Shown piece by piece: positions 6,589 to 49,217 of a DNA stretch of 64,000 nt (the first letter of the stretch is position 1; each line of letters starts with the position of its first letter). The position numbers were made by a program, and so were the translations under genes. The notes beneath the pieces are model-generated. The model was not told where the DNA came from. It ran no database searches and saw nothing but the letters and a program-made list of their open reading frames with translations. This DNA is from Brevundimonas sp. GTDB taxonomy: Bacteria; Pseudomonadota; Alphaproteobacteria; Caulobacterales; Caulobacteraceae. The stretch covers positions 21,538 through 85,537 of the forward strand of contig JAUYAG010000190.1 in NCBI GenBank assembly GCA_030693575.1, in the 5' to 3' direction.

Positions 6589-11069
<4,481 letters not shown>

Positions 11070-21750: not shown

Positions 21751-22950
21751 TCAGGCTCCAGGCACGCGAAGCCCGCGCGCCGCCTCGGTCAGGGCGGCCT
21801 GCTCGGTCGGTGAATCGGCGAAGGCACGCATCCCGTTGCGATACGCCGCCGTCGCCGCGGCGCTGTCGCCCAGCACCATCCGCGCCCGCATCAGCCGCAC
21901 CCAGCCTTCGCGGTCACGCGGCGAGGTCCGGAGCCGCTCCTCGAGCCCCCCGACCATCCCCTGGATCATGGCCTGCCGGTCCGCCTCGGACATGGAGCCG
22001 GCTTCGGCGACCTGGGCCGCTGTCGGCCCGGGAATTCCGGGGGGAACCACCGCCGGAGCAGAAGACCCCGCCGGCGCCGGCCGCAGACGGCTGGAAATGT
22101 CCTGCCCCCGCTCGCGCGCCAGATCCTCGACGAAGGTGCGGACCTCGGCAGCCCAGGGCGCGCCGGCCGGGGCTGAATTGATCAGATCGATCCAGGCGGT
22201 CATCGCCGCCTCGCGTTCGCCGCGCTGGTCCATCTCGACAGCGACGAAATAGCGGGCGCGGGGATCCTGCGGATCCGCGCGCAGGGCGCCGCGGAAGGCG
22301 GTCAGGGCGGCCGGCGTCACCTGCCCTCCTCCGGCCTGGACGAGGGCCTCCCCCTGGGCCGAGAAATGCTCGGCGTTCGTCGGCTCCAGCGTCGCCGCGC
22401 GGCCATAGGCCTCCGCCGCGTCGGCGAACCGGCCGGTCTGGAAATAGGACCAGCCGAGCATGCGCCAGCCGTTGACGTCCTCCGGCGTCTGGCGAAGCTG
22501 GGCCTCCAGCTGCACGATCATGGCCGGGACATCCGCCCCGTCGTGGGCCGCATCAGCCGGCGCTGCCGCCACGGCTGCGGCGCGAGGGCCGGCCCCGGGA
22601 AGGTCTGGTCTGCCCAGCAGCGCGTACAGACCGGCACCGCCGAGGGCTACGACTGCCGCGAGGCCAAGGGCCAGCCGGAGCAGGGCCTTCTCGCCCAGCG
22701 GACGGCGGGTCGGTGTCGTCTCGACGCCCTCCGCCAGCGCGCGACGCTCGACCTCGAGACGCAGGGCCGCGATGTCCTCCGCCGGGGCCGTGCCCGCCTC
22801 CGCCTGCCGGTCGAGATCGGCCAGTTGCGCCTTGAGCACCTCGGCGGAGGTGGTCCGCCGGTCCAGCACGCCGCCGGGGCGGATCAGCGGTATGGCCAGC
22901 CCGACCACGGCCACGGCGATCATCAGGGTCAGGACAATCCAGAGGATCAT
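21751..22950 (-). CDS. ccmI: Cytochrome c-type biogenesis protein CcmI (CycH), TPR protein
   Basis: N-terminal TM, a second TM, then TPR-like repeats. It is the last gene of a ccmF-G-H-I run with ATGA overlaps. Confidence 0.8.
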   Translation of the reverse strand: MILWIVLTLMIAVAVVGLAIPLIRPGGVLDRRTTSAEVLKAQLADLDRQAEAGTAPAEDIAALRLEVERRALAEGVETTPTRRPLGEKALLRLALGLAAVVALGGAGLYALLGRPDLPGAGPRAAAVAAAPADAAHDGADVPAMIVQLEAQLRQTPEDVNGWRMLGWSYFQTGRFADAAEAYGRAATLEPTNAEHFSAQGEALVQAGGGQVTPAALTAFRGALRADPQDPRARYFVAVEMDQRGEREAAMTAWIDLINSAPAGAPWAAEVRTFVEDLARERGQDISSRLRPAPAGSSAPAVVPPGIPGPTAAQVAEAGSMSEADRQAMIQGMVGGLEERLRTSPRDREGWVRLMRARMVLGDSAAATAAYRNGMRAFADSPTEQAALTEAARGLRVPGA

Positions 22951-23420
22951 GGTGCGTCACCGGCTTTCAGAATGTCTGCGAGCGCGCCGCGCTCCTCGGC
23001 CGACAGCGGCGCGGGATCGGCGCCGCCGGCGCGACTGCGGCGTCTCAGATAGAGGGCGAGGCCGATGCCGCCGGGGATCAGCACCAGCAGCGGCGCGCTC
23101 CACAACAGGATGGTCTGCAGGTCCAGCGGCGGCTTCAGCAGGACGAAATTGCCGTAGCGGGCGACGATATAGGCCATCACCTCCTCGTCGGTGTCCCCCG
23201 CCGTCAGCCGCTCGCGCACAATGGCCCTCAGGTCGGCGGCGAGCGGCGCGTCAGAGTCGTCGATCGACTGGTTCTGGCAGACGACGCAGCGCAGTTCCTG
23301 GCTGATCGTCCGCGCCCGCGCCTCGAGCACGGGATCGGCCAGCTGCTCTTCCGGCAGCACCGCCGCCACGGGCCCCGCGATCAACAGGGCGCAGAACAGG
23401 CCGAGGACGAAACGTCTCAT
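22947..23420 (-). CDS. ccmH: Cytochrome c-type biogenesis protein CcmH (CycL)
   Basis: Signal peptide plus the LRCVVCQNQSIDDS motif (CxxC) and a C-terminal TM. The real start is MRRFVLG at 23420, not the 339-aa ORF-track start. Confidence 0.85.
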   Translation of the reverse strand: MRRFVLGLFCALLIAGPVAAVLPEEQLADPVLEARARTISQELRCVVCQNQSIDDSDAPLAADLRAIVRERLTAGDTDEEVMAYIVARYGNFVLLKPPLDLQTILLWSAPLLVLIPGGIGLALYLRRRSRAGGADPAPLSAEERGALADILKAGDAP

Positions 23421-23953
23421 GTCTCGTTCTCCAGTCGGTCCAGCATGGGCTTCAGCGTCTCCGTCCAGACCTCGGGGGTGATCGGACCGACGTGGCGGTA
23501 GCGGACCCGGCCGTGTCCGTCGATGACGAAGGTCTCGGGCGCGCCTGTGACGCCGAAATCGATGCCGGTGCGGCCGCGCGGGTCCGAACCGATCAGGGTG
23601 TAGGGATTGCCCCGCTGGGCCAGCCATTCGGCCCCGTCGGCCGGCTCGTCCTTCCAGTCCAGCCCATGGATGGTCACGCCCTGCGACTGGAGACGCAGCA
23701 GCATCGGATGCTCGATGACGCAGGCCACACACCATGAGGCGAAGACGTTGAGCAGCACAGGCTTGCCAGTGAAGTCCGACGACGCCAGCCCCACGGTATC
23801 CTCGGGCGTCAGACCGGGCAGGTCGAAGGTCGGGATCGGCCGGTCGATCAGCATGGACGGCAGGATGCTGGGATCGCGACGAAGGCCCAGACCGAGGGCC
23901 GCGGCGACCATCAGGAACAGGGCGATCGGAATGATGAAGGCCAGCCGCCTCAT
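23417..23953 (-). CDS. ccmG: Thiol:disulfide interchange protein DsbE/CcmG
   Basis: N-terminal anchor and thioredoxin-fold motif FASWCVACVIEHP. Confidence 0.85.
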   Translation of the reverse strand: MRRLAFIIPIALFLMVAAALGLGLRRDPSILPSMLIDRPIPTFDLPGLTPEDTVGLASSDFTGKPVLLNVFASWCVACVIEHPMLLRLQSQGVTIHGLDWKDEPADGAEWLAQRGNPYTLIGSDPRGRTGIDFGVTGAPETFVIDGHGRVRYRHVGPITPEVWTETLKPMLDRLENET

Positions 23954-25929
23954 GCTGCCGCCTCACCGGTTTTTGACGGGGCAGTCTTGCCGGCGGGCAT
24001 GGCCAGCCGCAAACGGCGGTCAGACAGCGACAGGCCGCCGCCCAGGGCCATGATCATGGCCCCGCCCCAGATCCATCCGACCAGTGGATGCCACCACAGC
24101 CGGACCGTGGCGGCCCCCAGGGTCGCGCTCTCCCCCACCGAAATATAGAGATTGCCCATCGCCTCGCCGTGGATCCCGGCCTCGGTCGTCTGGGTCTGGC
24201 TGGACGGATAGAAACGCTTCTCGGACACCATCAGATACGGCCGGCCCCGCCCCTCGATGCGGAAACGCCCCTGCTCCGCCTGATAGTTGGGGCCCGTCGC
24301 CGGGCCGAGGGCATCGAGCGTGATGCGGCGTCCGGCGAACTCTATGGTCTGGCCGGGAAGCATGGTCACGACCTCGCTGTCCGTCCAGGCGGTGATGGCC
24401 GTAATCCCGATGGTGCTGACGCCGAGGCCCGCGTGCGCGATCGCGACGCCCCAGACCGCCAGAGGCGTGGTGCGGATCAGTCGGCCGGTTTCGGCGCCCT
24501 TGCGACCCAGTCCCCAGCGCCGCACCAAGAGCATGACGGATGCCGCAACCAGCCAGACCCCGAGCGCGATCCCCAGGGCCGCCCCGAGGTTGGCCAGGCC
24601 GAACGCGACCGCACCGACGCCCGCGACCACGATGGTAATGATGATCGGCCAGCGCAGCCGCATCAAGGCCGCCCGCGCCGTGTCGCGCTTCCAGTTCAGC
24701 ATCGGCCCGAATGCCACCAGCACCAGCAGCGGGATGAACAACGGAACGAAAGTCATATTGTAGTAGGGAGGCCCGACCGAAATCTTGTCGCCGTTCAGCA
24801 CATCGATGAACACCGGATAGAAGGTGCCGAGGAAGACCGTGGCCGTCGCGGCCAGCAGGAACAGGTTGTTCAGGGTGATCCCGGCCTCGCGCGACAGGGG
24901 CGAAAACAGGGCCCCCGTGCGCATCGACGGGGCCCGCCAGGCATAGAGGGCCAGCGCCGCCCCCGTCGCGATCAGGATGAAGACGAGAATATAGGCCCCG
25001 CGCTCCGGATCGACGGCGAAGGCGTGCACACTTGTCAGCACGCCCGACCGGACCAGGAAGGTACCGATCATGCTGAGCGAGAAGGTCAGGACCGCCAGCA
25101 GGATGGTCCAGCTGATCAGCGCCCCGCGTTTTTCAAGGACCATCGCCGAGTGCAGCAGGGCCGTACCCATGAGCCAGGGCATCAGTGAGGCGTTCTCGAC
25201 CGGGTCCCAGAACCACCAGCCGCCCCAGCCGAGCTCATAATAGGCCCACCAGCTGCCCAGGGCGATGCCGATGGTCAGGGAGACCCAGGCGGACAGAACC
25301 CAGGGACGGACCCAGCGGGCCCAGGCCGCATCCACCCGCCCCTCGATCAGGGCCGCGACCGCAAAGGCGAAGGCAACCGAAAACCCGACATAGCCGAGGT
25401 AGAGCAGCGGCGGATGCATGACGAGGCCGGGGTCCTGCAGCAGCGGGTTCAACTCCGTGCCGTCCAGGGGAATGGGGCTCAGCCGCGAGAAGGGATTGGA
25501 AGTGAACAGGCTGAAACCGATAAAGGCCGCGCTGAGCATCCCCTGAACCGCCAGCACCCGTGCCTGCAGCGTCTCGCGCAGGGAGCGGCCGAAGAAGGCG
25601 AGAGCACCACCGTGCAGGGCGAGGATCAGCACCCAAAGCAGCATGGAGCCCTCATGGCTGCCCCAGGTGGCGGCGATCCGATAGGGCAGAGGCTGGGTGC
25701 TGTGACTGTGTTTGGCGACCAGCTCGACGGAAAAATCCATCGTCACATAGGCCGTGGCCAGGGCTCCGAAGGCCAGGGTGACAAAGGCCATCTGGAGCAG
25801 GGCTGAAGTCCGTCCGAGGGACATCAGGACGGGATCGCCGCGGTGCGCGCCCAGCAGGGGGGCGACTCCCTGGATCAGTCCGAGCATGAAGGCGAGGATC
25901 AGCGCCAGCTGGCCGATTTCCGCGCTCAT
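23950..25929 (-). CDS. ccmF: Cytochrome c haem lyase subunit CcmF
   Basis: 659 aa and polytopic. The WGGWWFWDPVENAS tryptophan-rich (WWD) motif is present. Confidence 0.9.
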   Translation of the reverse strand: MSAEIGQLALILAFMLGLIQGVAPLLGAHRGDPVLMSLGRTSALLQMAFVTLAFGALATAYVTMDFSVELVAKHSHSTQPLPYRIAATWGSHEGSMLLWVLILALHGGALAFFGRSLRETLQARVLAVQGMLSAAFIGFSLFTSNPFSRLSPIPLDGTELNPLLQDPGLVMHPPLLYLGYVGFSVAFAFAVAALIEGRVDAAWARWVRPWVLSAWVSLTIGIALGSWWAYYELGWGGWWFWDPVENASLMPWLMGTALLHSAMVLEKRGALISWTILLAVLTFSLSMIGTFLVRSGVLTSVHAFAVDPERGAYILVFILIATGAALALYAWRAPSMRTGALFSPLSREAGITLNNLFLLAATATVFLGTFYPVFIDVLNGDKISVGPPYYNMTFVPLFIPLLVLVAFGPMLNWKRDTARAALMRLRWPIIITIVVAGVGAVAFGLANLGAALGIALGVWLVAASVMLLVRRWGLGRKGAETGRLIRTTPLAVWGVAIAHAGLGVSTIGITAITAWTDSEVVTMLPGQTIEFAGRRITLDALGPATGPNYQAEQGRFRIEGRGRPYLMVSEKRFYPSSQTQTTEAGIHGEAMGNLYISVGESATLGAATVRLWWHPLVGWIWGGAMIMALGGGLSLSDRRLRLAMPAGKTAPSKTGEAAA

Positions 25930-26051: not shown

Positions 26052-28502
26052 GTGGTGGAGGGGGTCCATCGGATCGCCATCTTGGGCTCTGGGCCCGCCG
26101 GTCTGAGTGCGGCCGCGCACGCGGCTGCCCGCGGCATGAGCCACATCCTGCTCGAGAAGTCGGATCACCTGTCGGACACCATATTCCGCTACCAGCGCGG
26201 CAAGCACATCATGGCCACGCCCAGCCAGCTGGTTGTGCGTGCCGATGTCAGTTTCGAGCCCGGCAAACGCGAGACCATTCTCGACACCTGGTCGAACGAG
26301 GCGGCGAAGCACAGGGTCAACGTCCGCTACCACGCGGAGGTCAAATCCATCACGGGCGCCAAGGGCAATTTCAGCATCGCCCTGTCAGACGGCTCCGTGG
26401 TCCGCGCCGAGACGATCGTTCTGGCCATCGGCACCCAGGGCAACCCCAACCTGATGTCCTGCGAGGGCGGCGGGCTGTCCCACGTCCAGTACCAGCTCGA
26501 CGACCCCGCCGAATATGTCGACGAACACATCTGCGTCGTCGGCGGCGGCGATGCCGGCATCGAGAACGCCCTCGGTCTGATCGCCGATCGGGCCCAGGGC
26601 AATACGGTCACCCTCGTCAACCGGGGCGCCGACTTCGCCCGTGCCAAGGAGGCCAATGCCAAGGCCCTGCTGGCGGCGCAGGAAGCGGGCCACATCACCC
26701 TGCTGACTACGGCAGAAACCACCCTGATCGAGCCCGGCTGGATCACGGTCGACACCCCTGAAGGCGCGACCCGTTTCCAGTGCGATCGGGTCATCGCCCG
26801 CCTCGGCTCGGCCCCGCCGCGGAAATTCGTGGAATCGATCGGGCTGGAGTTCACAAGCGCCGCCCGCGAGGCCTTCCCCAAGCTGTCGCCGACGTTCGAA
26901 AGCACCGTGCCGGGCATCTATGTCATCGGGGCGTTGGCCGGCTATCCGCTGATCAAACACTGCGTCAACCAGGGCTATGACGTCGTCGAATACATCGGCG
27001 GCGCCGTCGATCTGAAGCCGGCCGACGAGCCCATTCTGGAGGCCCGGCTGAAAGGCCTGCCCGGCAACCGTTCCGTCGCCCAGTGGCTCGAGTTCCTCCG
27101 CCAGGAGATCGAGATCCTGCGCGGCCTGTCGCCGCTTCAGATGCGGGAATTCCTGCTCGATTCAGACGTGCGCGCCTTCAACGCGGGCGACGTCGTCTTC
27201 AAGCGCAACTCGATCGGCTCATCGCTGTTCGGCATCGCCTCCGGTTCGGTCGAGGTCGAGGTCGGTGCCGGCAAGAAGCGGATGACCGTCCCGATTCCGC
27301 GGGGCTCGATCGTCGGCGAGGTCGGTCTGATTTCCGGACGCCCTCGCGGCGCGACGGTGCGGGCGGCGGAGCCTTCCATCCTGCTGGAAATCCCGCGCAT
27401 GGCCGCCCTGCGCCTGATGGCCTCGGTCAAGGAGGCGCGCGACACCGTCAACCGCATCACCACCGAACGCCAGCTGCTGCAGATGTTCGGCTCAGGGCTG
27501 ACCCCGGCAGACCTGACCGATGTGCTGGAAACGGCGGAAATCCGTCAGGTGAAGACCGGCGAAGCGATCATCCGAGAGGGCGAGGACGGCTACGACATCT
27601 TTGTCGTCCGCTCGGGAAGCATGGTCGTCGAGAAGGAGATCGGCGGAAAGCCGGTCTTCCTGTCCTACCTCCCGGCGGGCTCCTACGTCGGGGAGATGGC
27701 CCTGGTCGACGGCGGGCGGCGCAGCGCCACGGTCCAGGCCGCGATCCGTTCCGAAGTGGTCAGGCTGGACGGCGACCGCTTCCGCGCCCTGCTCAGGCGC
27801 AAGCCGGAGCTGGAGGAGAAGCTCCGCGCGGATATGGCCGACCGTCGCAAGGTCAACGGCTATATCGAGGAGCAGAAGGGCAAGTTCGGCGACGTCGTCG
27901 ACATGTACAGCGCGGTCGCGGACTTCCTAGTCGACCAGGGCATCGGCGAGGCCACCGACGTCCTGCTGATCGACGAAACCCTCTGCATCGGCTGCGACAA
28001 CTGCGAAAAGGCCTGCGCCGACGTTCACGACGGCCTGTCGCGGCTGGATCGCGAGGCGGGCCGCACCTACGCCCATCTGCACGTTCCGACCTCGTGCCGG
28101 CACTGCGAACACCCGTACTGCATGACCGACTGCCCGCCCAATGCGATCCATCGCGGGCCGGACGGCGAGGTCTTCATCGACGAGACCTGCATCGGCTGCG
28201 GCAACTGCCAGCGGAACTGTCCCTATGACGTGATCCGCATGGACTCGCGGCCGCCGAAGAAGCCGGACCTGATCTCCTGGCTGCTGTTCGGTGTCGGACC
28301 CGGGCCGGGCGAGCCCGACAAGGCCTGGCGGGCGAAGAACAAGGCCAAGGGTGCCGAACCGCCCAAGGTCGCCATCAAATGCGACATGTGCATCGGCAAG
28401 GCGGGCGGCCCGGCCTGCGTGCGCGCCTGTCCGACCGGGGCGGCGATCCGGGTCTCGCCCGAAGAGTTCCTGACCGTCAAACGCATGAACAGGGGCGACT
28501 AG
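26052..28502 (+). CDS. Multidomain redox protein: FAD/NAD(P)-binding oxidoreductase + two cyclic-nucleotide-binding domains + four-cluster [4Fe-4S] ferredoxin module
   Basis: Two dinucleotide folds (ILGSGPAG; VVGGGDAG). Two CAP-effector-type domains carry phosphate-binding cassettes (GEVGLISGRPRGATV; GEMALVDGGRRSATV). Four Cys clusters are present: CIGCDNCEKAC, CRHCEHPYCMTDCP, CIGCGNCQRNCP and CDMC...CVRACP. There is no signal peptide, so it is predicted cytoplasmic. Confidence 0.8.
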   Translation: MVEGVHRIAILGSGPAGLSAAAHAAARGMSHILLEKSDHLSDTIFRYQRGKHIMATPSQLVVRADVSFEPGKRETILDTWSNEAAKHRVNVRYHAEVKSITGAKGNFSIALSDGSVVRAETIVLAIGTQGNPNLMSCEGGGLSHVQYQLDDPAEYVDEHICVVGGGDAGIENALGLIADRAQGNTVTLVNRGADFARAKEANAKALLAAQEAGHITLLTTAETTLIEPGWITVDTPEGATRFQCDRVIARLGSAPPRKFVESIGLEFTSAAREAFPKLSPTFESTVPGIYVIGALAGYPLIKHCVNQGYDVVEYIGGAVDLKPADEPILEARLKGLPGNRSVAQWLEFLRQEIEILRGLSPLQMREFLLDSDVRAFNAGDVVFKRNSIGSSLFGIASGSVEVEVGAGKKRMTVPIPRGSIVGEVGLISGRPRGATVRAAEPSILLEIPRMAALRLMASVKEARDTVNRITTERQLLQMFGSGLTPADLTDVLETAEIRQVKTGEAIIREGEDGYDIFVVRSGSMVVEKEIGGKPVFLSYLPAGSYVGEMALVDGGRRSATVQAAIRSEVVRLDGDRFRALLRRKPELEEKLRADMADRRKVNGYIEEQKGKFGDVVDMYSAVADFLVDQGIGEATDVLLIDETLCIGCDNCEKACADVHDGLSRLDREAGRTYAHLHVPTSCRHCEHPYCMTDCPPNAIHRGPDGEVFIDETCIGCGNCQRNCPYDVIRMDSRPPKKPDLISWLLFGVGPGPGEPDKAWRAKNKAKGAEPPKVAIKCDMCIGKAGGPACVRACPTGAAIRVSPEEFLTVKRMNRGD

Positions 28503-28506
28503 ACCC

Positions 28507-29379
28507 TTGGCGAAGACAGCGAAAACAGGCGAACGCTCCAATCCCGGCCAGCACGACGGCTTCCTTGGCTACAGGAATTTCCGTTGGGCCTGGCGCGCCG
28601 GCGCGCTGTGCGTGATCGCCATCGCGGCCTATTTCCTGATCGACGCCGAGCCGCGTCCCAACGGCGGCAGCGTCTTCGGCTATGTGGCCGGGACGATCGC
28701 GGCACTGCTGGTGCTCTGGCTGACCCTGCTGGGCCTGCGAAAGCGCGCCATCACCTCGGGCGACTGGTCGCTGAAGGCCTGGGTGTCGGCCCATGTCTAT
28801 CTGGGCCTGGCCGTGATGGTCGTCGCGACCCTGCATTCGGGCTTCCAGTTCGGCTGGAACGTCCACACCCTGGCCTACGGCATGATGGTGCTGGTGGTTG
28901 TCTCCGGCCTGTTCGGCATCACCGTCTATGCCCTCCTCCCCCGCTACCTCAGCCGCAACCGCGGCGAGACCACCCAGAAGCAGATGCTGGAGACGCTCAA
29001 GGCGCTGGACCGCCAGATCAATGAGGCGGCCCAGCCGCTGTCCGAGGCGCAGGCCCGGGTGGTGCAGATGTCGCTCGATGACAGCCGGGTCGGCGGCCAC
29101 CTGTGGCGGCGGCTGTCCGGCGGACGCGGCGGCTGCGGCAACCGACGCGCCCTGTCGCGCCTGAAGGGCCTGCGTCGTCAGGCGACGGACGTCGAACTGC
29201 AGATGCTCGACCGGATCGAGGAACTGCTGCAGCGCAAGGCTGCCGCCCTCGCCCAGGTCCGTCGCCACCTGCAGATCCGGGCCTGGCTGAGCGTCTGGCT
29301 GGCGGTCCATGTGCCGGCCACCATCGCGCTCATCGCCGCGATCACCGCCCATGTCTTCAGCGTCTTCATCTACTGGTGA
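28507..29379 (+). CDS. His-rich 5-TM membrane protein (candidate b-haem / transmembrane electron carrier)
   Basis: TTG start 4 nt after the upstream stop. Four N-terminal TM helices, a soluble loop of about 110 aa, and a fifth TM. His residues sit inside the TM segments (SAHVYL, ATLHSG, VHTLAY, AVHVP, TAHVF). Confidence 0.65.
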   Translation: MAKTAKTGERSNPGQHDGFLGYRNFRWAWRAGALCVIAIAAYFLIDAEPRPNGGSVFGYVAGTIAALLVLWLTLLGLRKRAITSGDWSLKAWVSAHVYLGLAVMVVATLHSGFQFGWNVHTLAYGMMVLVVVSGLFGITVYALLPRYLSRNRGETTQKQMLETLKALDRQINEAAQPLSEAQARVVQMSLDDSRVGGHLWRRLSGGRGGCGNRRALSRLKGLRRQATDVELQMLDRIEELLQRKAAALAQVRRHLQIRAWLSVWLAVHVPATIALIAAITAHVFSVFIYW

Positions 29380-29386
29380 TGGCCCG

Positions 29387-31237
29387 ATGACCCTTGTCCT
29401 TCGCCAGGTGACACGCCGCGTAAGCGGGGCCGAAATCGTCCGGGAAAAGGTCCTGCCGACCGACGTCGCGCGCATCGGACGCGGCGCGGACTGCGAGATC
29501 CGTCTGCCCGATCTGGCGGTCAGCCTGCACCACGCCACCCTGACCCTGACCGGACCGGGACAGGTCAGCGTCGTCTCCGCCGGGCGGGAGCCGTTCGGCG
29601 TCGACGGCCGGTTCGTCACCCGGACCGACATCGACGTCAGCCGGGCCCCGCGTCTGACCTTCGGCGATCACATCCTGACGCTGGCGGCCGGCGACGGCGG
29701 CCGCATCCTGATCAACCTCGCCGCCTCGGAACCGGCCGAGGGCGAGTCCTCGTCCGGTGTTCCGGCGGGCGGCGTCATCCCCAAGGCCCGCATCTTCGGC
29801 CGTCGACGGATCGCCTGGACCCTGGGTCTGGGGATCGTTGCGCTCTGCCTGCTCTGGCCGCTGGCGGCCTTCCACGGCCACCTGAAGGCCCGGATCGATC
29901 CGGACCAGCAGTGGTCAACCGGCCCACTGTCGTCCGCCCACGCCTTCCTGGAAGACGACTGCCAGGCCTGCCACCAGGAAGCCTTCGTCGCGGTGACCGA
30001 TGCGTCCTGCAAGTCCTGCCATGCCGGCGATCAGACCCCGGCCATGATGGCCGCCGCCGCAACCTCCGTGCGCCGGGCCGGCTCGCCGGACACGCTGTCG
30101 TTTGTCAGGGACCACGCGCCTCGCGGCCGGATTCTCTGGGGCGCCCCGCCGCCGGCAGGGATCACCGGACAGACCACCGCCTGGTTTCGGCGCGCCTTCA
30201 ATCTGCCCGAGCAGCGCTGCGCCAGCTGCCACGTCGAACACGTCGCCAACCCGGTCGCCGGCAGACCGCCCGAGCCGATTCCGACGCTGACACCCACCCA
30301 GACCTGCATCCAGTGCCATACGGGCCTGACCCATCGGCTGAAGGACACCGACCTGGCCGATGCGCCGTCCTGGGCCCGCCATCCGAATTTCCGCCCCACC
30401 CTGCCCGGCCCCGCCGGTCTGACCCGGGTGTCACTGGACAGCCGCCCGCGCGAGGCGTCCGGCCTGACCTTCCCGCACGATCTGCACCTGTCGCCCGGCG
30501 GCGGCCCGGCGCGCATGGCCCAGACCCTGGGAGGGCGCGGCTATGGCGCGGCCCTGACCTGCGCCAGCTGTCACCGGCCCGATGCGGACCAGACGGGCTT
30601 CGCGCCCATCCAGATGGAGCGCGACTGCGCCAGCTGCCACTCCCTGTCGTTCGCCACGCCCGGCGGCGTCCGCCAGTTGCCGCACGGCGAGCCGGGCCAG
30701 GTGGTCGCCGCCCTGATGGCCTGGCAGGGACGCGGCCCCGTCGCCGGTGGCGCAACCTCGCGGCGGCGGCCCGGCGAGGCCGGTGAAGGCGGACCCGGCC
30801 CGGGCGGCTCGCCCACGGGCGCCAGCGCGGTCAACACCGTGGGCGGCGCCTTTGGCCCGCGCGGAGCCTGTTTCGACTGTCACACCATCTTCCGGACACC
30901 GACCATCCGCTTCACGCCGGTCCGGCTGCCCGGCGACTTCCTGAGCCGCGGGGCCTTTGACCACAGCGTCCGCGAACACCGCGTCGACCGTCAGGGCCAG
31001 CCGTCCTGCGCCCAGTGCCACGCCGCGGCGACATCGGGCTCAGCGACCGATCTGCTGCTTCCGTCGGTCACCGAATGCGTCGAATGCCATGGCCAGACAA
31101 CGGCTCGCTCGCCGACTCCGGCGCCGGCCAATTGCGAGACCTGCCACAGCTTCCATGCGCCGTCGCACCCGACGCCGAAGCCGCCCCGCCCGAACTTCAG
31201 CGCACTGCCGGCGCCAAGGGCTCAGACCACACCATAG
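29387..31237 (+). CDS. FHA domain - TM anchor - decahaem c-type cytochrome
   Basis: Start MTLVLRQV... at 29387. The N-terminus is FHA-like (ARIGRGADCEIRLPDLAVSLHHATL...FGVDGRFV). A TM helix follows (IAWTLGLGIVALCLLWPLAAF). Then 10 CXXCH motifs, counted by eye: CQACH, CKSCH, CASCH, CIQCH, CASCH, CASCH, CFDCH, CAQCH, CVECH, CETCH. Confidence 0.8.
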   Translation: MTLVLRQVTRRVSGAEIVREKVLPTDVARIGRGADCEIRLPDLAVSLHHATLTLTGPGQVSVVSAGREPFGVDGRFVTRTDIDVSRAPRLTFGDHILTLAAGDGGRILINLAASEPAEGESSSGVPAGGVIPKARIFGRRRIAWTLGLGIVALCLLWPLAAFHGHLKARIDPDQQWSTGPLSSAHAFLEDDCQACHQEAFVAVTDASCKSCHAGDQTPAMMAAAATSVRRAGSPDTLSFVRDHAPRGRILWGAPPPAGITGQTTAWFRRAFNLPEQRCASCHVEHVANPVAGRPPEPIPTLTPTQTCIQCHTGLTHRLKDTDLADAPSWARHPNFRPTLPGPAGLTRVSLDSRPREASGLTFPHDLHLSPGGGPARMAQTLGGRGYGAALTCASCHRPDADQTGFAPIQMERDCASCHSLSFATPGGVRQLPHGEPGQVVAALMAWQGRGPVAGGATSRRRPGEAGEGGPGPGGSPTGASAVNTVGGAFGPRGACFDCHTIFRTPTIRFTPVRLPGDFLSRGAFDHSVREHRVDRQGQPSCAQCHAAATSGSATDLLLPSVTECVECHGQTTARSPTPAPANCETCHSFHAPSHPTPKPPRPNFSALPAPRAQTTP

Positions 31238-32580
31238 GCCAGCATCGCCTCGGCGACCTTCTTGAAGCCCGCGATATTGGCACCGCGCACATAGTCGATG
31301 CGCTGGGTCCCGGCCACGCCGCCGTATTCCACACAGCGCTGATGAATCCCGCGCATGATGTCGATCAGGTGCTGCTGGAGCTCGGCCTCCTTCCAGGCGA
31401 TCCGCCCCGAGTTCTGGCTCATCTCCAGACCGGACACCGCCACGCCGCCGGCGTTGGCGGCCTTGCCGGGCGCATACAGAATGCCCGCCGCCTTGAACAC
31501 GTGCACCCCCTCCAGATCGGTCGGCATATTGGCGCCCTCGGACACCGCCATGCAGCCGTTCGCCACCAGCGTCCGGGCGTCCGCACCGTTCAGCTCATTC
31601 TGGGTCGCGCAGGGCAGGACGACGTTGCAGGGCACCGCCCACGGCCGCTGGCCCTCGTGGTAGGTGGCCCCGCGGAACTCGGTGACATAGTCCGATATCC
31701 GCCCGCGCCGCCGGGTCTTGTGCACCTTGACCCAGTCGATCCTGGCCTGGTCGATGCCGTCGGGATCGTGGATGAAGCCCTGCGAATCCGACAGGGTCAG
31801 GACCTTGCCGCCCAGTTGCACGATCTTCTCGGCCGCATGGGTCGCGACATTGCCCGAGCCGGAGATCACGGCCGTCTTTCCCGCCACGTCCTGGCCGATA
31901 TGGCCCAGCATCTCCTTGAGGAAATAGACCGCCCCGTATCCCGTCGCCTCGGTGCGGATCAGGCTGCCACCGTAGGACAGGCCCTTGCCGGTCAGCACGC
32001 CGGTGAACTGGTTGGTGATCCGCTTGTACTGACCGAACATATAGCCGATCTCACGCCCGCCCACGCCGATGTCGCCGGCCGGGACATCGATGTCCGCGCC
32101 GACGTGGCGGTACAGCTCGGTCATGAACGACTGGCAGAACCGCATCACCTCGTGATCCGACTTGCCCTTCGGATTGAAGTTCGATCCGCCCTTGCCGCCG
32201 CCCATCGGCAGGCCTGTCAGACTGTTCTTGAACGTCTGCTCGAAGGCGAGAAATTTGAGCACGCTCTCGGTCACGCTCGGATGGAAGCGGATGCCGCCCT
32301 TGTAGGGCCCGATGGCGTTGTTGTTCTGCACCCGCCAGCCCCGCTGGACGCGGATATTGCCCTTGTCGTCCTCCCAGCAGACCCGGAAGCTGATCACCCG
32401 GTCCGGCTCCGCGATGCGGCGCAGGATCTGGTAGTGGTGATACTCCTCCTTGTCCTGGATGAAGTCGAAGATGTCTTCGGCCACTTCCTGAACCGCCTGG
32501 ACGAACTCGTCCTGGCCGGGATTCCGCTTCTTCACGCCCTCGATGAACCGGGGCAGGTCGACATGGTCCGAGACGGCCAT
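31222..32580 (-). CDS. gdhA: NADP-specific glutamate dehydrogenase
   Basis: 452 aa with GLPMGGGKGGSNFNPKG and the overall Glu/Leu/Phe/Val dehydrogenase pattern. Its 3' end overlaps the convergent cytochrome gene by 16 nt. Confidence 0.9.
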   Translation of the reverse strand: MAVSDHVDLPRFIEGVKKRNPGQDEFVQAVQEVAEDIFDFIQDKEEYHHYQILRRIAEPDRVISFRVCWEDDKGNIRVQRGWRVQNNNAIGPYKGGIRFHPSVTESVLKFLAFEQTFKNSLTGLPMGGGKGGSNFNPKGKSDHEVMRFCQSFMTELYRHVGADIDVPAGDIGVGGREIGYMFGQYKRITNQFTGVLTGKGLSYGGSLIRTEATGYGAVYFLKEMLGHIGQDVAGKTAVISGSGNVATHAAEKIVQLGGKVLTLSDSQGFIHDPDGIDQARIDWVKVHKTRRRGRISDYVTEFRGATYHEGQRPWAVPCNVVLPCATQNELNGADARTLVANGCMAVSEGANMPTDLEGVHVFKAAGILYAPGKAANAGGVAVSGLEMSQNSGRIAWKEAELQQHLIDIMRGIHQRCVEYGGVAGTQRIDYVRGANIAGFKKVAEAMLAYGVV

Positions 32581-32600: not shown

Positions 32601-33521
32601 TCATGGAAGGGGATTCGGAGGGCCGTTGCCGCAGCCGCCGCCGCCCTGACTGGGGCCGCCGGGGCTCTGGATCGGGCCGCCCGCCTCGCAGCCAACAGAC
32701 GGCTCGATCGGATCAAGGCCGGGCCCGCGATCGCTGAAGAAGAGGTCGCCCGCGTCAAGGCTCGCGGACAGGACATCGCCCGCGCCGGAATCGCTGTTCG
32801 ACGTCGGCGCGGCCCTGAGCAGGGCGCTCAGCCGGGACGAGGCCTCGTCCGACAGTTCGAACGGCCCGAAGGTTCCGCCCGCCCAGGCGAACATCGCCAG
32901 GCCCGGGCGTTCGAGGGTGAACATCGTATCCCCGCTGGTGACGTCGATCGCGCCGGGCGTATCGAAGCCCGCGCCCCGCGGACCGGGTCCGCGCAGAACG
33001 ATCAGGGTGGCGTCGTCGGGTGAACCGCTGAAGGCCGGCAGGCCGGGATGGCCGGCCAGCACGGACAGGGCGTCAGGGCCGACGACCGCCTCGACCACCG
33101 TGCCACGCACGCCGATAGACGAGACAGGTGTCCGCACGGCGCCGGGCCGGGCTCCGCCGCGGCCGGACACGAAGCGGAACGCGCCGCGCGCGACCGAGGC
33201 TGACGCCCCGCCCGCCCGCCGGTCGGTATCGATCACGAAGCGGTCAATGGTCACCCGCGCGTTCGAGCCGACCGTGAAGATCGACTGGTCCCGCAGCAGG
33301 ATCTGCAACTGGCTCTGCGCGCCGCTGACGAAGACGTCGCCCGTGCGGACCTGCCCTCTCAGGGCTGCGGGCCGCAGCGCGCTTTCGCCGACGGGCTGGG
33401 TGCGGACGCTGTTGCGGATGGCGGCGTTGACGCCGACGGCCTCCTGGGCCTGGACGAACACAGGCGCAGACAGTGCGCAGGCCAGGGCGGCGACGGCGGC
33501 AAAGGTGCGAACCGGGATCAT
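32601..33521 (-). CDS. Secreted FecR-domain protein
   Basis: I chose the start MIPVRTFAAVAALACALSAPVFVQAQEA (GGAGAG 6 nt upstream). The FecR-like segment is GDVFVSGAQSQLQILLRDQSIFTVGSNARVTIDRFV. The stop lies only 20 nt before the gdhA ATG. Confidence 0.7.
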   Translation of the reverse strand: MIPVRTFAAVAALACALSAPVFVQAQEAVGVNAAIRNSVRTQPVGESALRPAALRGQVRTGDVFVSGAQSQLQILLRDQSIFTVGSNARVTIDRFVIDTDRRAGGASASVARGAFRFVSGRGGARPGAVRTPVSSIGVRGTVVEAVVGPDALSVLAGHPGLPAFSGSPDDATLIVLRGPGPRGAGFDTPGAIDVTSGDTMFTLERPGLAMFAWAGGTFGPFELSDEASSRLSALLRAAPTSNSDSGAGDVLSASLDAGDLFFSDRGPGLDPIEPSVGCEAGGPIQSPGGPSQGGGGCGNGPPNPLP

Positions 33522-33532
33522 GGTCATCTCTC

Positions 33533-34870
33533 CTAGTTGGCCGCGCCGAAGCGCCACGTCAGGCGCAGTTCAGCGCCCCAGCTGTCATAGTCCGCGAGCG
33601 GCGCGAGGGAGTCCCGCGCGCCATAGGTCAGCGCGCCCTCGACGCCCACATCCTGCCGCCAGTCACCCGTCGCTCCGGCCGCGGTGAAGGCGCTGAACGG
33701 GGCGCCGACCGCGACGCGCGCCCAGCTGCGGGTGTCTTCTCGGGCCGGCGCGGCGAAACCGATGAAGACCGGGTCGGGCGCATCATATTCCAGCCACTGC
33801 ATGCCGCCGGAAATCGCCAGATACTGGCCGCGGCGGCTGCTGGTGTCGTACCGCGCCTGAACGCCGGGACCCGAATAGCCGAAGGGTTCGTAGTCGGCCT
33901 GCTTGTCCTGCCAGCCAGCGGAGACGCCGAAGCTGGTGCGGGCGTCCAGGCGGTGGGTCATGCCGACGTTGAAATCATAGCGCCAGCCATCGCGGTCTCC
34001 ACCGATCAACAGGGCGAGGGCGTCGACGCCCGGCTCATCGAACGACTGGTTCACCGCCTCGCCCGAGATGGAGAGGGTCGTCGCGTTGCTGGTCCGCCAC
34101 CGGGCCTGGGCCTTCAGGCCGACTTCCCGCATGTAGGGATCATCAAGGAGGTCCAGCGCGCGCGCCACGGCGCTGACATTCCAGGAGTTCAGCCGGCCCG
34201 TATAGGACAGTCCGGCTTCCAGGTCCCCACGCCGCACATTCCCGTCGATGTCGTCAAAGGTCGAACGGTCGTAGCCGCCGATCGAGCCGAAGGCCGCATA
34301 GCCGGCGGCACCGTCGAGGTCGTGGGCGATGTTGAGGCGCGCGGCGAACACGGCCGCCCCACCCTCTTCGCTGACCGGCGGGCTGAAGATCGAGTCGAAC
34401 TGGGTCGTCAGCGCGCCCGCGGCGTCGTCCTCGTAGGTGACGGCGGCCGAAGCCGTGCCGCTGAACCGGGTCGTCGACCGGCTGCGCGCGATCCGTGCGC
34501 GATAGCGGGTCGCCTCCGCCCGCTGCAGGGGCGTCAGGGTCACCGGCTCCAGCAGGTCCAGCTGGTCCCGTGCGCCCTGCAGGTCATCGAGGCGGAAAAG
34601 GACGACGGCGTACAGCAATCGAGCCCCATGGCGGTTCGGGTCCGCGATCAGCACACGCTCCAGGGCGCCGGCCGCCCCGTTGAGGTCGCCGGCATCCGCC
34701 GCCTGGCGGGCGTAGGCCAGATTGAGATCGACATCGTCCGGCGCGGCCAGCACGGCGTCGAAGTCCTGGGCCGCCGCGACCCCGACCGTCGCCGCTGACA
34801 ATCCCACCACGGCCGAAACCAGCAACCCGGCCCGGAAGGCCGCCGCTGAACGAGACGCTGGACGCTTCAT
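33533..34870 (-). CDS. Outer-membrane protein: N-terminal TPR-like region + C-terminal beta-barrel (Slam/DUF560- or NsrA-like)
   Basis: Signal peptide ending VAAAQD and TPR-like helices (NLAYARQAADAGDLNGAAGALERVLIADPNRHGARLLYAVVLF). An alternating-strand C-terminal half ends in LTWRFGAAN. Confidence 0.6.
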   Translation of the reverse strand: MKRPASRSAAAFRAGLLVSAVVGLSAATVGVAAAQDFDAVLAAPDDVDLNLAYARQAADAGDLNGAAGALERVLIADPNRHGARLLYAVVLFRLDDLQGARDQLDLLEPVTLTPLQRAEATRYRARIARSRSTTRFSGTASAAVTYEDDAAGALTTQFDSIFSPPVSEEGGAAVFAARLNIAHDLDGAAGYAAFGSIGGYDRSTFDDIDGNVRRGDLEAGLSYTGRLNSWNVSAVARALDLLDDPYMREVGLKAQARWRTSNATTLSISGEAVNQSFDEPGVDALALLIGGDRDGWRYDFNVGMTHRLDARTSFGVSAGWQDKQADYEPFGYSGPGVQARYDTSSRRGQYLAISGGMQWLEYDAPDPVFIGFAAPAREDTRSWARVAVGAPFSAFTAAGATGDWRQDVGVEGALTYGARDSLAPLADYDSWGAELRLTWRFGAAN

Positions 34871-34898
34871 GTATTCCCCCAACCGCTTGCAGATTGCC

Positions 34899-34999: not shown

Positions 35000-37285
35000 A
35001 TGGGGGCGGAGCCTGAGACCGAGCGATTGAAGGAGATCGGGTCGCGCCTCGCGCGCTCCAGCCTTTCGCTTACGCGATACATCGCAACGGCCGGCCCTGG
35101 TCTGGTGGTGGGCTTGCTGCTGCTGATACTGCATATATTCCAGCCGCCGTTCGTCGGCAGCATCAGCAATCTGGTCTTCGACACCTATCAGCGCGCCTGG
35201 CCGCGTCCGTACGAGGACGCCGGGGTCCGGGTCGTCGACATCGATGACGAGAGCATCCGCCGTCTCGGCCAGTGGCCATGGCCGCGCACGGATGTCGTCC
35301 GCCTGACAGACGCTCTCACCGAGGCCGGCGCAGCGGCCATCGCCTTCGACATTGTCTTCTCCGAGCCGGACCGGACGTCGCCCGCTCGCGCCGTCGAAAT
35401 CCTGCGGCAGAACCCCGAGGCGCGCGGCGACTATGCCGAGATCGCCGCCATGACTGACCATGATGAACTGCTGGGCCAGGCCATGGGACGGGGCCCAACG
35501 GTCACCGGCTATTTCCTCACGGAGGAAGCCAACACCGCCCGGCCGGCCGAGCACGCGGGGGTCGCCGTTTCGGGGACGCCGCCGCTGGGCGTCCTGCGGG
35601 AATACAACGGTGCCATCGTCAGCCTGCCGGTGATCGGTGATCGCGCGGCGGGAGCCGGGTCTGTCAGCCTGGACGCGGGCCGGGACGACATGATCCGGGC
35701 GGTGCCGCTCATCGCCAATCTGGACGGCCAGATCATTCCCTCGTTGTCACTCGAGGCGCTCAGGGTCGCCCAGGACGCCGGCGCCGTTCTGGTCCGCAGC
35801 AGCGACGGCAGCGGCGAATGGGGTGGCGGTCCGGTCACCACCGTGCTTGCCGTCAAGACCGGCGACCTGGAGGTCCCGACCACCGACGTCGGCGAACTGT
35901 GGATGCACTACACCGCGCCCCATCCGGAGCGGATCGTGCCCGCCTGGCGGATCCTCCAGGGGGACCTGCCGGAGGCCGAGATGCGACGGCTGTTCGAGGG
36001 GCAGATCGTCTTCATCGGCACGGGTGCGATCGGCCTGCGGGACATCCGCTCAACCCCTACCCAGCAAGGCGAGCTCGGCGTCGTGATCCACGCCCAGGCG
36101 GCCGAGCAGATGATCCTCGGCAAGTTCCTCACGCGGCCCGACTGGGCTCCGGGCGCAGAGCGGATGCTCATGGTGGCGCTCTGTCTGCTGATCGCCCTCT
36201 CGGCTCCCGCGCTCGGCGCCCTGCGCGGCGGGGTGCTGGCCACGGCCGCACTGGGCGGCGTGCTGGCCGGATCGTGGCTGGCCTTCAGAAACAGCGGCGT
36301 GCTGCTGGAACCCATCTTCCCGGCGCTGGGCGTGGTCTCCGTCTACATCGCCATCACCGCCGTCTCCTTCTACCGGGAGGAGCGGGCGCGGAGTCACATC
36401 CACAACGCCTTCGACCGCTATCTGTCGCCGGAGCTCGTCGACCGGATCGCCCGCGATCCCGGCCAGCTGGAGCTCGGCGGCGAAGTGCGTCAGATGACGG
36501 TGCTGTTCAGCGACGTCCGGGGCTTCTCCCGCATCTCTGAACGCTTCGGGCCGCAGGAACTGATCGGTTTCCTCATCAACCTGCTGACGCCGATGACCGA
36601 CGTGCTCCTGGCCCGCAAGGCGACCATCGACAAATACATCGGCGACGCCGTTCTGGCCTTCTGGAACGCGCCACTCGACGACCCCGAGCACGAACGGAAC
36701 GCGGCCTTTGCGGCGCTGGAAATGCTCGAGACGCTCAAACGCCTGAACGCCGACAGCGCCCGCGATCCGGCTTGGCCCGGTCAGGTCGCGATCGGCATCG
36801 GCCTGAACACCGGCCCTTGCTGCGTCGGCAACATGGGTTCGCGCCAGCGCCTCAGCTATTCGCTGATCGGCGACACCGTTAACCTCGCCTCGCGTCTGGA
36901 GAGCCTGACCAAGGCCTATGCGGTGAACATCCTCGTCGGCGAGGACCTCGCCGCCCGCCTGCCCGACTTCGCCCTGATCGAACTGGACCTCATCCGCGTC
37001 GTCGGCCGCGACGCGCCCGAGCGCGTCTTCGCCCTGATGGGCCCGCCGGAACTGTCGTCAGACCCCGCCTTCGTTGAAACCGGGACCCGGATGGCCACCG
37101 TCCTCGAGGCGTACCGGTCCCGCGACTGGGCCGGTGCCGAGGCTGCACTGGAGAACCTGCGGGGTGCGGGTACGCTGCCGGGCCTTGAGGGCGTGGCAGC
37201 CATCTACGCCACGCGGGTTGCGGATTTCCGCGAGACCCCGCCGCCCGCCGACTGGGACGGAATCAGCCAGGCGCTGGAGAAATAG
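35000..37285 (+). CDS. CHASE2 sensor domain - class III adenylate/guanylate cyclase
   Basis: N-terminal TM, then a CHASE2-like periplasmic domain (VVDIDDESIRRLGQWPWPR, AFDIVFSEPD). Three or four TM helices follow, then the cyclase catalytic domain (MTVLFSDVRGFSRISE, KYIGDAVLAFWNAP, GLNTGPCCVGNMGS, IGDTVNLASRLES). Confidence 0.85.
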   Translation: MGAEPETERLKEIGSRLARSSLSLTRYIATAGPGLVVGLLLLILHIFQPPFVGSISNLVFDTYQRAWPRPYEDAGVRVVDIDDESIRRLGQWPWPRTDVVRLTDALTEAGAAAIAFDIVFSEPDRTSPARAVEILRQNPEARGDYAEIAAMTDHDELLGQAMGRGPTVTGYFLTEEANTARPAEHAGVAVSGTPPLGVLREYNGAIVSLPVIGDRAAGAGSVSLDAGRDDMIRAVPLIANLDGQIIPSLSLEALRVAQDAGAVLVRSSDGSGEWGGGPVTTVLAVKTGDLEVPTTDVGELWMHYTAPHPERIVPAWRILQGDLPEAEMRRLFEGQIVFIGTGAIGLRDIRSTPTQQGELGVVIHAQAAEQMILGKFLTRPDWAPGAERMLMVALCLLIALSAPALGALRGGVLATAALGGVLAGSWLAFRNSGVLLEPIFPALGVVSVYIAITAVSFYREERARSHIHNAFDRYLSPELVDRIARDPGQLELGGEVRQMTVLFSDVRGFSRISERFGPQELIGFLINLLTPMTDVLLARKATIDKYIGDAVLAFWNAPLDDPEHERNAAFAALEMLETLKRLNADSARDPAWPGQVAIGIGLNTGPCCVGNMGSRQRLSYSLIGDTVNLASRLESLTKAYAVNILVGEDLAARLPDFALIELDLIRVVGRDAPERVFALMGPPELSSDPAFVETGTRMATVLEAYRSRDWAGAEAALENLRGAGTLPGLEGVAAIYATRVADFRETPPPADWDGISQALEK

Positions 37286-42128: not shown

Positions 42129-42135
42129 GCGCCCC

Positions 42136-49040: not shown

Positions 49041-49161
49041 GAACCTGTTGCCCCCCCATGCTGCGGCGGAGACTACACCCATGCGCGCCGGCGCCCGCAA
49101 GTCCGCACGCCTGGCTGGGACGACAAGCCCACTGGCCCGCAACCCTCTTGCACTGCAACAA

Positions 49162-49186: not shown

Positions 49187-49217
49187 TGACCCGCCCGCAC
49201 TCACGCAAAGCAAGACG

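Follow-up and report, generated by a model that had tools for sequence, protein, structure and literature searches.

A 64,000-nucleotide stretch of a Brevundimonas genome (contig JAUYAG010000190.1 of assembly GCA_030693575.1, positions 21,538 to 85,537; called the window in the following, ~68% G+C) encodes three adjacent proteins, here named P1, P2 and P3, that together span the inner membrane: a cytoplasmic flavoprotein with cyclic-nucleotide-binding and ferredoxin-type domains, a membrane protein with conserved histidines, and a membrane-anchored decahaem cytochrome with an FHA-like domain. This triad is real and strongly conserved, as is apparent from its composition, topology, residue conservation, linkage and distribution, and it is the inner half of a larger, putative envelope electron conduit of seven to ten genes. 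On balance, we lean towards the view that electrons leave NAD(P)H for the periplasm through an inner-membrane complex of P1, P2 and P3, independently of quinones and gated by cAMP.

A conserved inner-membrane triad

The initial annotation had described three plus-strand genes separated by 4 and 7 nucleotides (nt), and the open reading frames (ORFs) were found at just these places (Table 1). An alternative, longer ORF for P3, starting at 29309, would run into P2. Inside P1-P2-P3 no promoter or terminator signal exceeding chance was detected. The domains of the window proteins were called by matches to Pfam, NCBIfam and PDB sequences, and the domains assigned to P1 and P3 were matched in Pfam; these matches, together with hundreds of orthologues, ruled out that the three are chance ORFs of high-GC DNA. 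Gene order was counted in the 80 loci with the best matches to a P2 profile, which come from Brevundimonas, Phenylobacterium and many Sphingomonadales; here and below, the denominators are the loci with enough flanking sequence. P1, P2 and P3 were collinear on one strand in 66 of 66 loci, which bears out the co-occurrence across genomes by which the triad was to be judged, and they were collinear too in eight more distant loci (L085-L092). When the P2 profile was run against one genome per species, a relative was found in at least 590 species. Among the matches listed, the nearest P2 belonged to an uncultured Brevundimonas (97%), followed by those of B. vancanneytii and B. denitrificans (94%). 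One protein of 1110 amino acids (aa), P0336, comprises a complete P1 and a complete P2 with the start methionine of P2 kept. The whole system is also present in cultured organisms, e.g. Brevundimonas denitrificans NBRC 110107, Rhizorhapis suberifaciens DSM 7465, Novosphingobium species and Nisaea sediminum.

The N-terminal domain of P1 matched the Pfam model Pyr_redox_3 (1e-30, residues 10-293), and the best PDB match of residues 9-297 was YpdA/Bdr (7a7b); judged by sequence, this kinship is real at the level of the fold. The NCBIfam models for YpdA and TrxR gave 134.9 bits (cutoff 339.9) and 60.8 bits (cutoff 343), respectively. A CxxC motif is absent from residues 1-320, in which cysteines occur only at positions 137, 161, 244 and 304, and therefore the domain is not a disulfide reductase; with scores far under the equivalog cutoffs, TrxR and YpdA/Bdr were excluded as assignments. 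The domain probably resembles the ferredoxin-NADP reductases of thioredoxin-reductase fold. In the middle of P1, two stretches matched the Pfam model cNMP_binding (5e-35, 119.8 bits at a cutoff of 27.5), and residues 375-581 aligned as a tandem pair of cyclic-nucleotide-binding domains (CNB-A/CNB-B) to the PDB sequences of PKA RI-alpha and PKG. Their phosphate-binding cassettes are GEVGLISGRPRGATV with E422/R431 and GEMALVDGGRRSATV with E548/R557, and these four residues are invariant among 74 P1 orthologues. Two CAP-type domains for cyclic nucleoside monophosphates (cNMP) had been predicted, which holds, but only one of them had been credited with a canonical cassette, whereas both keep the key Glu and Arg. 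Towards the C-terminus, cysteine motifs of the CxxCxxCxxxC type are found at residues 645, 682, 713 and 777, and the 16 cysteines would be enough for four [4Fe-4S] clusters. Several Fer4 dicluster models of Pfam matched residues 640-800, the best PDB match of residues 638-810 was HycB of formate hydrogenlyase (7z0s_B, 3.7e-20), and the NCBIfam models of DmsB, NrfC and HydN matched under their cutoffs. The 74 orthologues (59-99% identity) have both GxGxxG motifs, all 16 Fe-S cysteines and the linker into the Fe-S domain invariant or nearly so, and no hydrophobic or transmembrane (TM) segment was found in P1. In all, the Pfam and PDB matches and the 16 cysteines agree with the earlier description of P1 as a flavoprotein joined to two cNMP domains and four ferredoxin-type cysteine clusters.

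P2 has five TM helices by hydropathy and in an AlphaFold2 model, which shows in addition a cytoplasmic helical insert. The model was built from 91 diverse sequences and reached a predicted local distance difference test score (pLDDT) of 82 and a predicted template modelling score of 0.75; a first model from a shallow alignment (26 sequences, at least 56% identity) had a pLDDT of 61 and was discarded, the fold search with it being meaningless. No Pfam family matched P2 above cutoff, the best weak ones being TctA with 22.6 bits (cutoff 28.9) and Ni_hydr_CYTB with 17.8 bits (cutoff 30.1), and the ferric reductase/NOX family PF01794 gave no match at E up to 0.01. Relatives are nevertheless plentiful, with 2759 clusters at 50% identity for E up to 0.001 and 305 for E up to 1e-30. 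In 113 full-length representatives of 28-50% identity, the best-conserved residues are histidines: H96 (100%), H110 (100%), H120 (98%), H268 (95%) and H282 (96%), and the same histidines are invariant or nearly so in the alignments A1, A2 and A3. H96 and H110 are located on TM3 and H268 and H282 on TM5, each 14 residues apart; paired histidines of this kind, spaced by 13-14 residues on each of two TM helices, characterise NOX-type proteins. Hydropathy, the positive-inside pattern and the model predict that the N-terminus is inside, which places H96 and H268 close to the cytoplasm and H110 and H282 close to the periplasm. A bis-His, two-haem layout with such pairs is classical for transmembrane b cytochromes, and a spacing of 14 residues is likewise known from NOX and from bc1-complex cytochrome b. 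By analogy, P2 is best described as a protein that may work like NOX or cytochrome b, membership in either not being borne out by the family tests. Compared with the six-TM proteins NOX, DUOX, STEAP and MsrQ, the P2 model has five TM helices, and none of these proteins appeared as a Foldseek target.

P3 consists of an FHA-like domain (aa 1-100, cytoplasmic), a TM helix (142-160) with the N-terminus inside, and a periplasmic decahaem domain (192-587). Exactly ten CXXCH motifs are located at 192-583, where 0.034 would be expected by chance from the protein's own composition, and the same number was found in 77 of 77 full-length orthologues as well as in seven more distant ones. The FHA model matched with 24.3 bits (cutoff 20.7), and Cytochrome_C7 and c3_2 matched too (Pfam). 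A NapC/NirT match, as for CymA and NrfH, was not found in P3, in which an FHA-like domain precedes the TM helix and ten haems follow. The GR and HA signatures of the FHA-like domain are invariant, the phosphate-binding Ser is replaced by Asp, Pro or Leu in most orthologues, and the Asn is missing in the Caulobacterales/Sphingomonadales clade and present in distant lineages; from these residues we read the domain as a docking module rather than as a proven phosphothreonine reader. Thus, the anatomy foreseen for both membrane proteins was recovered: five TM helices with buried histidines in P2 (hydropathy, AlphaFold2 model and 95-100% conserved His), and an FHA domain, one TM anchor and ten periplasmic CXXCH motifs in P3 (Pfam, hydrophobicity and motif count).

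Table 1 Positions of the triad, its domains and neighbouring genes in the window, and gene orders in distant loci
Feature	Position	Strand	Remarks
P1	26052-28502	+	GTG start, 816 aa
P1 flavoprotein domain, aa 1-320	26052-27011	+	thioredoxin-reductase fold, two dinucleotide sites, no CxxC
P1 tandem CNB domains A and B, aa ~355-600	27114-27851	+	two cNMP_binding stretches
P1 polyferredoxin domain, aa 635-805	27954-28466	+	four Cys motifs
P2	28507-29379	+	TTG start, 290 aa, 4 nt downstream of P1
P3	29387-31237	+	ATG start, 616 aa, 7 nt downstream of P2
LVIVD decahaem cytochrome, 1308 aa, putative surface component	38202-42128	-	10 CXXCH; C-terminal LVIVD beta-propeller repeats, Pfam LVIVD 1.5e-16
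Secreted protein, 610 aa, putative outer-membrane beta-barrel	42136-43968	-	signal peptide MKVAWPALIVV..., C-terminal ...AVLSF
HbpS-like (DUF336/GlcG) lipoprotein	43968-45944	-	Pfam HbpS-like 3.5e-24, three stretches; lipobox LAGC, then Gly-rich linker
c554-like tetrahaem cytochrome	45941-47338	-	4 CXXCH; Cytochrome_C554 1.1e-10
CHASE2-sensor class III nucleotide cyclase, adenylate-cyclase-like	35000-37285	+	Pfam
Class III (CpdA/Rv0805/GpdQ/SpdA-type) metallophosphoesterase, putative cNMP phosphodiesterase, 289 aa	37319-38188	+	
FecR-domain protein	32601-33557	-	Pfam; FecR directly upstream of P1 in L086 and L091
TPR protein	33533-34882	-	Pfam; order cyclase-TPR-FecR-P1 in L086
Glutamate dehydrogenase gdhA	31222-32580	-	between P3 and FecR; 3' end convergent, 16-nt overlap with P3 stop
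Type II secretion minor pseudopilins GspK, GspJ	47455-49310	-	Pfam
Cytochrome c maturation genes ccmF / ccmG-H / ccmI	21751-25929	-	divergent from P1; Pfam; same layout in L001
L086, Woeseiaceae		one strand	CHASE2 cyclase, TPR, FecR, P1, P2, P3, HbpS-like, ~600-aa protein, LVIVD multihaem, c554
L091, Steroidobacteraceae			FecR, P1, P2, P3, HbpS-like, 600-aa protein, LVIVD, c554
L089, gammaproteobacterial metagenome-assembled genome			P1, P2, P3, HbpS-like, 609-aa protein, LVIVD, c554
L088, Nisaea sediminum			same core, next to genes for a prepilin peptidase and the secretin GspD
L090, Ferrovibrio			same core, with a divergently oriented full (near-complete) operon for type II secretion (L090 1-4930)
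L085, L087, L092, large assembly contigs (7.3, 6.0 and 0.4 Mb)			same core
Small ORF in L085	12621-13061		
Small ORF in L088	12545-12991		
Small ORF in L090	12636-13061		
Small ORF in L092	12566-13021		

The outer-membrane module and neighbouring genes

Four genes on the minus strand of the window (38202-47338) are translationally coupled by overlaps or a 7-nt gap. They encode an LVIVD decahaem cytochrome, a secreted 610-aa protein, an HbpS-like lipoprotein and a c554-like tetrahaem cytochrome, and P3 and these two cytochromes are the only multihaem ORFs of the window (10, 10 and 4 CXXCH). For the 610-aa protein no Pfam family was found; a signal peptide and a terminal Phe fit a putative outer-membrane barrel. 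Porin-cytochrome conduits of the MtrCAB/Pcc type are recognised by a barrel gene next to those of multihaem cytochromes; at this place, the window has the gene of a protein whose signal peptide and C-terminal Phe make it a barrel candidate. Matches of MtrC domains to the LVIVD protein stayed under the Pfam cutoff.

In the distant loci, whose P2 and P1 are 38-43% and 46-51% identical to the window proteins, the corresponding genes come after P3 on the same strand (Table 1), with the HbpS-like orthologue directly after P3 in L085-L091. Compared by tblastn with L085-L089, the HbpS-like protein is 45-53%, the 610-aa protein 50-56%, the LVIVD decahaem cytochrome 59-64% and the c554-like tetrahaem cytochrome, with orthologues in L086, L088 and L089, 39-44% identical. 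The LVIVD cytochrome is thereby better conserved (59-64%) than P3 (27%). In at least four loci, P3 and the HbpS-like gene are separated by a conserved small ORF of 141-151 aa that matches no Pfam family and is absent from the window; of its carriers, Nisaea (L088) and Ferrovibrio (L090) are Rhodospirillales. Because the outer-module genes run on from P3 on a single strand in all eight distant loci, the triad is not self-contained. The complete three-gene wire that had been proposed was therefore found in its anatomy, i.e. in domains, topology and the histidines of P2, but not as a unit of its own: it is the inner-membrane half of a conserved envelope system of 7-10 genes.

Downstream of the triad, the window encodes a CHASE2-sensor nucleotide cyclase and a putative cNMP phosphodiesterase. 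The best PDB matches of the cyclase were CyaB (3r5g) and CyaC (1wc0), and it has the adenine-specifying Lys (DKYIGD) as well as a Ser (YSLIG) at the Thr/Asp position. Since it matches adenylate cyclases best and has adenylate-type residues, cAMP appears the likelier product. The cyclase is found near the triad in three arrangements, i.e. as in the window, directly after P3 (L001) and upstream of P1 (L086); in L001, a closer relative, P1, P2, P3, cyclase and phosphodiesterase follow each other with overlapping stops. The metallophosphoesterase is related to Rv0805 and GpdQ (PDB), CpdA and SpdA, and its metal motifs D-x-H, GD, GNHD, H and GHxH are all kept in 67 orthologues. In 49 of 66 loci, P3 is followed at a distance of at most 400 nt by a phosphodiesterase-like gene. 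The linkage of cyclase and phosphodiesterase speaks for a response of the P1 CNB domains to cyclic nucleotides whose pool is controlled locally.

Further genes accompany the system. The Woeseiaceae operon begins with the CHASE2 cyclase, next to which a TonB-dependent receptor gene (L086 1-1806) is oriented divergently; this receptor and the FecR proteins hint at an iron or siderophore input. Type II secretion genes stand beside the system in three lineages, namely as GspK/GspJ in the window, at 512-2569 and 6681-7439 of the Nisaea locus (L088) and at 1-4930 of the Ferrovibrio locus (L090), and this adjacency hints at a dedicated secretion of a surface component. A ccmI-like TPR gene is divergent upstream in 42 of 63 loci. 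In Sphingomonadales, only this gene (~325 aa, e.g. L002 6388-7365) keeps the ccm position, and its product might serve this system as an apocytochrome chaperone of its own, as NrfG does elsewhere. That the conduit supplies reductant to cytochrome maturation was set aside, distant lineages having no ccm adjacency. In the window, gdhA and an inverted FecR/TPR pair have been inserted after P3. The order gdhA-FecR-TPR after P3 is common to six Brevundimonas-type loci (L007-L012), L005 has FecR/TPR and no gdhA match, and gdhA is downstream of P3 in several Phenylobacterium loci. On the minus strand at 52537-60188, several long ORFs (365-685 aa, 70-73% G+C) without a Pfam match overlap long plus-strand ORFs.

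Proposed electron route and its alternatives

In the route that we favour, NAD(P)H would reduce the FAD of P1 in its ferredoxin-NADP-reductase-like domain, which has no redox disulfide, and the electrons would then pass through the four [4Fe-4S] clusters of the C-terminal polyferredoxin. They would cross the membrane via two b haems of P2, with H96 and H268 holding the cytoplasmic-side and H110 and H282 the periplasmic-side haem, and would next enter the ten c-type haems of P3. From there they may be handed on to the outer-membrane module of c554-like tetrahaem cytochrome, HbpS-like lipoprotein, beta-barrel and LVIVD decahaem cytochrome, which is probably put in place with the help of type II secretion, and from this module to an acceptor outside the cell. 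The PKA-R-like CNB pair, placed between the flavin and Fe-S domains of P1, would gate the transfer from flavin to Fe-S by cAMP; of the linked genes, the CHASE2 cyclase would supply this cAMP and the class III phosphodiesterase would clear it. Such a valve makes sense because the route would spend reductant without conserving energy. NAD(P)H, at about -320 mV, is able to reduce c-type haems, and electrons moving outwards run with the membrane potential; it is because of thermodynamics and membrane potential that we propose the outward direction. A wire from NAD(P)H via FAD, Fe-S clusters and P2 haem to the decahaem protein, with a built-in cNMP sensor, had already been drawn in the initial annotation. 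Its parts are in place; it is flow and its direction, gating, cAMP as the ligand, the cofactors of P2, formation of a complex and the terminal acceptor that we infer. As to the purpose, one may speculate on reductive iron acquisition, in view of the FecR proteins and the TonB-dependent receptor of L086, or, equally speculatively, on disposal of excess reductant or reduction of an extracellular oxidant.

Several observations weigh against this outward, cAMP-gated route. The haems of P2, which stands for a new family of probable di-haem b proteins, are deduced from the His pattern only. P2 falls outside the cytochrome b561/FdnI/HyaC family PF01292 (17.8 bits against a cutoff of 30.1), a profile search for PDB sequence relatives returned only coiled-coil noise from the cytoplasmic insert, and a Foldseek search of PDB with the confident model gave no significant fold match (best E 0.31, template modelling score at most 0.37). 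'Ferric-reductase-like' and 'cytochrome b561-like' as families for P2 were dropped after no fold match had been obtained, and the His-pattern argument alone was kept. The protein P0336 could be a natural fusion of P1 and P2 or, the P2 methionine being retained, the product of a lost stop codon or a sequencing error. On the side of regulation, the cyclase is absent from the Sphingomonadales loci, and the metallophosphoesterase scored under the equivalog cutoffs of SpdA (161.4 vs 400 bits) and CpdA (109 vs 225 bits) and also resembles the glycerophosphodiesterase GpdQ. Finally, the system is present in the Fe(II) oxidisers Ferrigenium and Ferrovibrio, which others take as a sign of inward flow.

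If electrons did flow inwards, the envelope cytochromes would take them from Fe(II), a mineral or a cathode, and P3, P2 and P1 would pass them on to NAD(P)+ or another cytoplasmic acceptor. Multihaem conduits are reversible in principle, the triad occurs in Ferrovibrio, and the Fe(II) oxidiser Ferrigenium straubiae expresses a version with a nonahaem P3, for which a role in uptake was proposed by the authors. However, Fe(II) and high-potential donors are unable to reduce NAD(P)+, inward flow opposes the membrane potential and no energy-coupling component is present; moreover, the 80 closest loci belong to Brevundimonas, Phenylobacterium and Sphingomonadales, generally known as aerobic heterotrophs, and the NAD(P)H site is strictly conserved among P1 orthologues. 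We regard this direction as quite unlikely. Also unlikely, in our estimate, is that P2 is a quinol- or quinone-reactive di-haem cytochrome b like NarI, FdnI or CbcL and that the quinone pool, not P1, is the main donor; P2-P3 would then be a quinol dehydrogenase and P1-P2 an alternative NAD(P)H:quinone reductase. It is established that all characterised entry points (CymA, ImcH, CbcL, CbcBA) use quinol, and some P2 relatives carry a weak precomputed PF01292 match, but P2 itself is outside that family by score and has no fold match to proteins of the NarI or FdnI type. A quinone-site motif was not identified in it, and all of the 66 loci encode its cytoplasmic NAD(P)H/Fe-S partner, which once occurs fused to it. 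Lastly, the density of signalling parts (two CNB domains, the FHA-like domain, CHASE2 cyclase, phosphodiesterase-like and FecR-domain proteins) might suggest a device that senses redox state or cAMP and relays it via FHA, FecR and cyclase without metabolic flux. This is highly improbable: 16 Fe-S cysteines, ten c haems and a further decahaem and tetrahaem cytochrome go far beyond the needs of a sensor, no kinase, DNA-binding or GGDEF output domain was found in P1-P3 with Pfam and NCBIfam, and the FHA-like domain lacks a conserved phosphate-binding Ser in most orthologues.

To our knowledge, every characterised bacterial inner-membrane route to periplasmic or extracellular multihaem cytochromes begins at the quinol pool. 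We tentatively suggest, as a possibility, that the outward route from NAD(P)H represents an uncharacterised class of conduit, with an NAD(P)H-fed entry via a flavo-polyferredoxin and a new di-haem b family, switched by cAMP at the dehydrogenase and equipped with its own extracytoplasmic-sensing cyclase and phosphodiesterase. If true, it would be the first component of an electron transport chain gated by a second messenger, and common aerobic bacteria of soil and water (Brevundimonas, Sphingomonadales, Phenylobacterium, Woeseiaceae) would possess an extracellular reductase on demand. The genome-based prediction of extracellular electron transfer would change and extend to abundant aerobic heterotrophs not deemed electroactive, and three large families labelled 'hypothetical' or 'cyclic nucleotide-binding domain-containing protein' would gain a function. 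Since tractable cultured hosts with the whole system exist, the hypothesis is directly testable.

Relation to known systems

Full-text literature searches revealed no characterised complex of such composition, in line with the initial annotation, but the composition as such has already been noticed in two preprints. One describes a cluster ptdABCDEFG from marine and saline taxa, among them marine Alphaproteobacteria, with PtdE as a cNMP-binding Fe-S protein given two 4Fe-4S clusters, PtdF as a 'ferric reductase-like' membrane protein, PtdG as a decahaem cytochrome, PtdC as a separate FAD/NAD(P) oxidoreductase, a pentahaem PtdA and a porin PtdB; its function 'remains completely unknown' according to the authors (10.1101/2023.11.21.568154). 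Examples of PtdE, PtdF and PtdG are SMF72598, SMF72604 and SMF72608 of Tistlia consotensis. As in ptdEFG, a cNMP-binding Fe-S protein, a multi-TM protein and a decahaem cytochrome are encoded next to each other in the window, a likeness drawn from the description alone. In contrast to ptd, P1 fuses the flavoprotein and four clusters, no pentahaem PtdA, porin PtdB or separate PtdC is linked, and the partners are the HbpS-like lipoprotein, the barrel, the LVIVD decahaem cytochrome and c554. The other preprint reports, from Ferrigenium straubiae, a nonahaem cytochrome that has one TM helix and an FHA domain in the cytosol, along with a 5-TM protein without an InterPro match and a cytosolic [4Fe-4S] protein (10.64898/2026.01.22.701106, section 6.3.2). 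These genes are encoded together and were expressed under all conditions tested; electron uptake towards quinone was proposed and the function was called unknown (10.64898/2026.01.22.701106). Again compared by description, that cytochrome has nine haems and P3 ten, and neither a cNMP nor a flavin domain is mentioned there. Absent from both preprints are the arrangement of histidines in P2, the fusion of the flavoprotein, the conservation of the cassettes and the linkage to phosphodiesterase and cyclase, as well as the HbpS/barrel/LVIVD/c554 module, the type II secretion adjacency and the breadth across Caulobacterales and Sphingomonadales. A lead from the LVIVD literature, the Tenderiales uet cluster, was unrelated, a preprint on multihaem proteins from peat does not mention the triad domains, and among the papers listed by the literature search, Brevundimonas was not found named together with multihaem proteins or iron reduction.

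Taken part by part, the triad has familiar relatives. HycB, DmsB, NrfC and HydN, the best matches of P1 residues 638-810, share with it a common polyferredoxin fold of four motifs and 16 cysteines, but in P1 this domain forms one protein with a flavoprotein and CNB domains, is cytoplasmic, carries no Tat signal and scores far under the equivalog cutoffs. The CNB pair aligns in tandem with that of the PKA regulatory subunit and PKG and keeps the cassette Glu and Arg in both domains; unlike there, it sits in an oxidoreductase and does not regulate a kinase, and its ligand is putative. The electron path has its closest counterpart in logic in NOX/FRE/STEAP and Fre-MsrQ, in which NAD(P)H reduces a flavin and electrons pass over a stacked pair of bis-His b haems, held by two TM helices, to an extracytoplasmic acceptor. 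NOX2 has the same 14-residue spacing (H101/H115) as P2. In contrast to these proteins, P2 has five instead of six TM helices and neither a Pfam ferric-reductase nor a fold match, the flavin domain of the triad is on a separate protein of another fold, a four-cluster Fe-S wire and CNB domains precede the membrane, and the electrons would go to a multihaem chain rather than straight to O2 or Fe(III).

CymA, ImcH, CbcL and CbcBA are likewise inner-membrane-anchored multihaem cytochromes that feed the periplasmic and outer-membrane cytochromes of Mtr/Pcc conduits, and in CbcL a di-haem b and a multihaem c domain are combined. They are fed by quinol, whereas the triad always comes with a cytoplasmic NAD(P)H flavo-Fe-S protein and, unlike them, has cNMP and FHA domains. 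In kind, the triad is a variant of the envelope multihaem conduits and, with its function as we infer it, a new type of inner-membrane entry module with a built-in second-messenger sensor.

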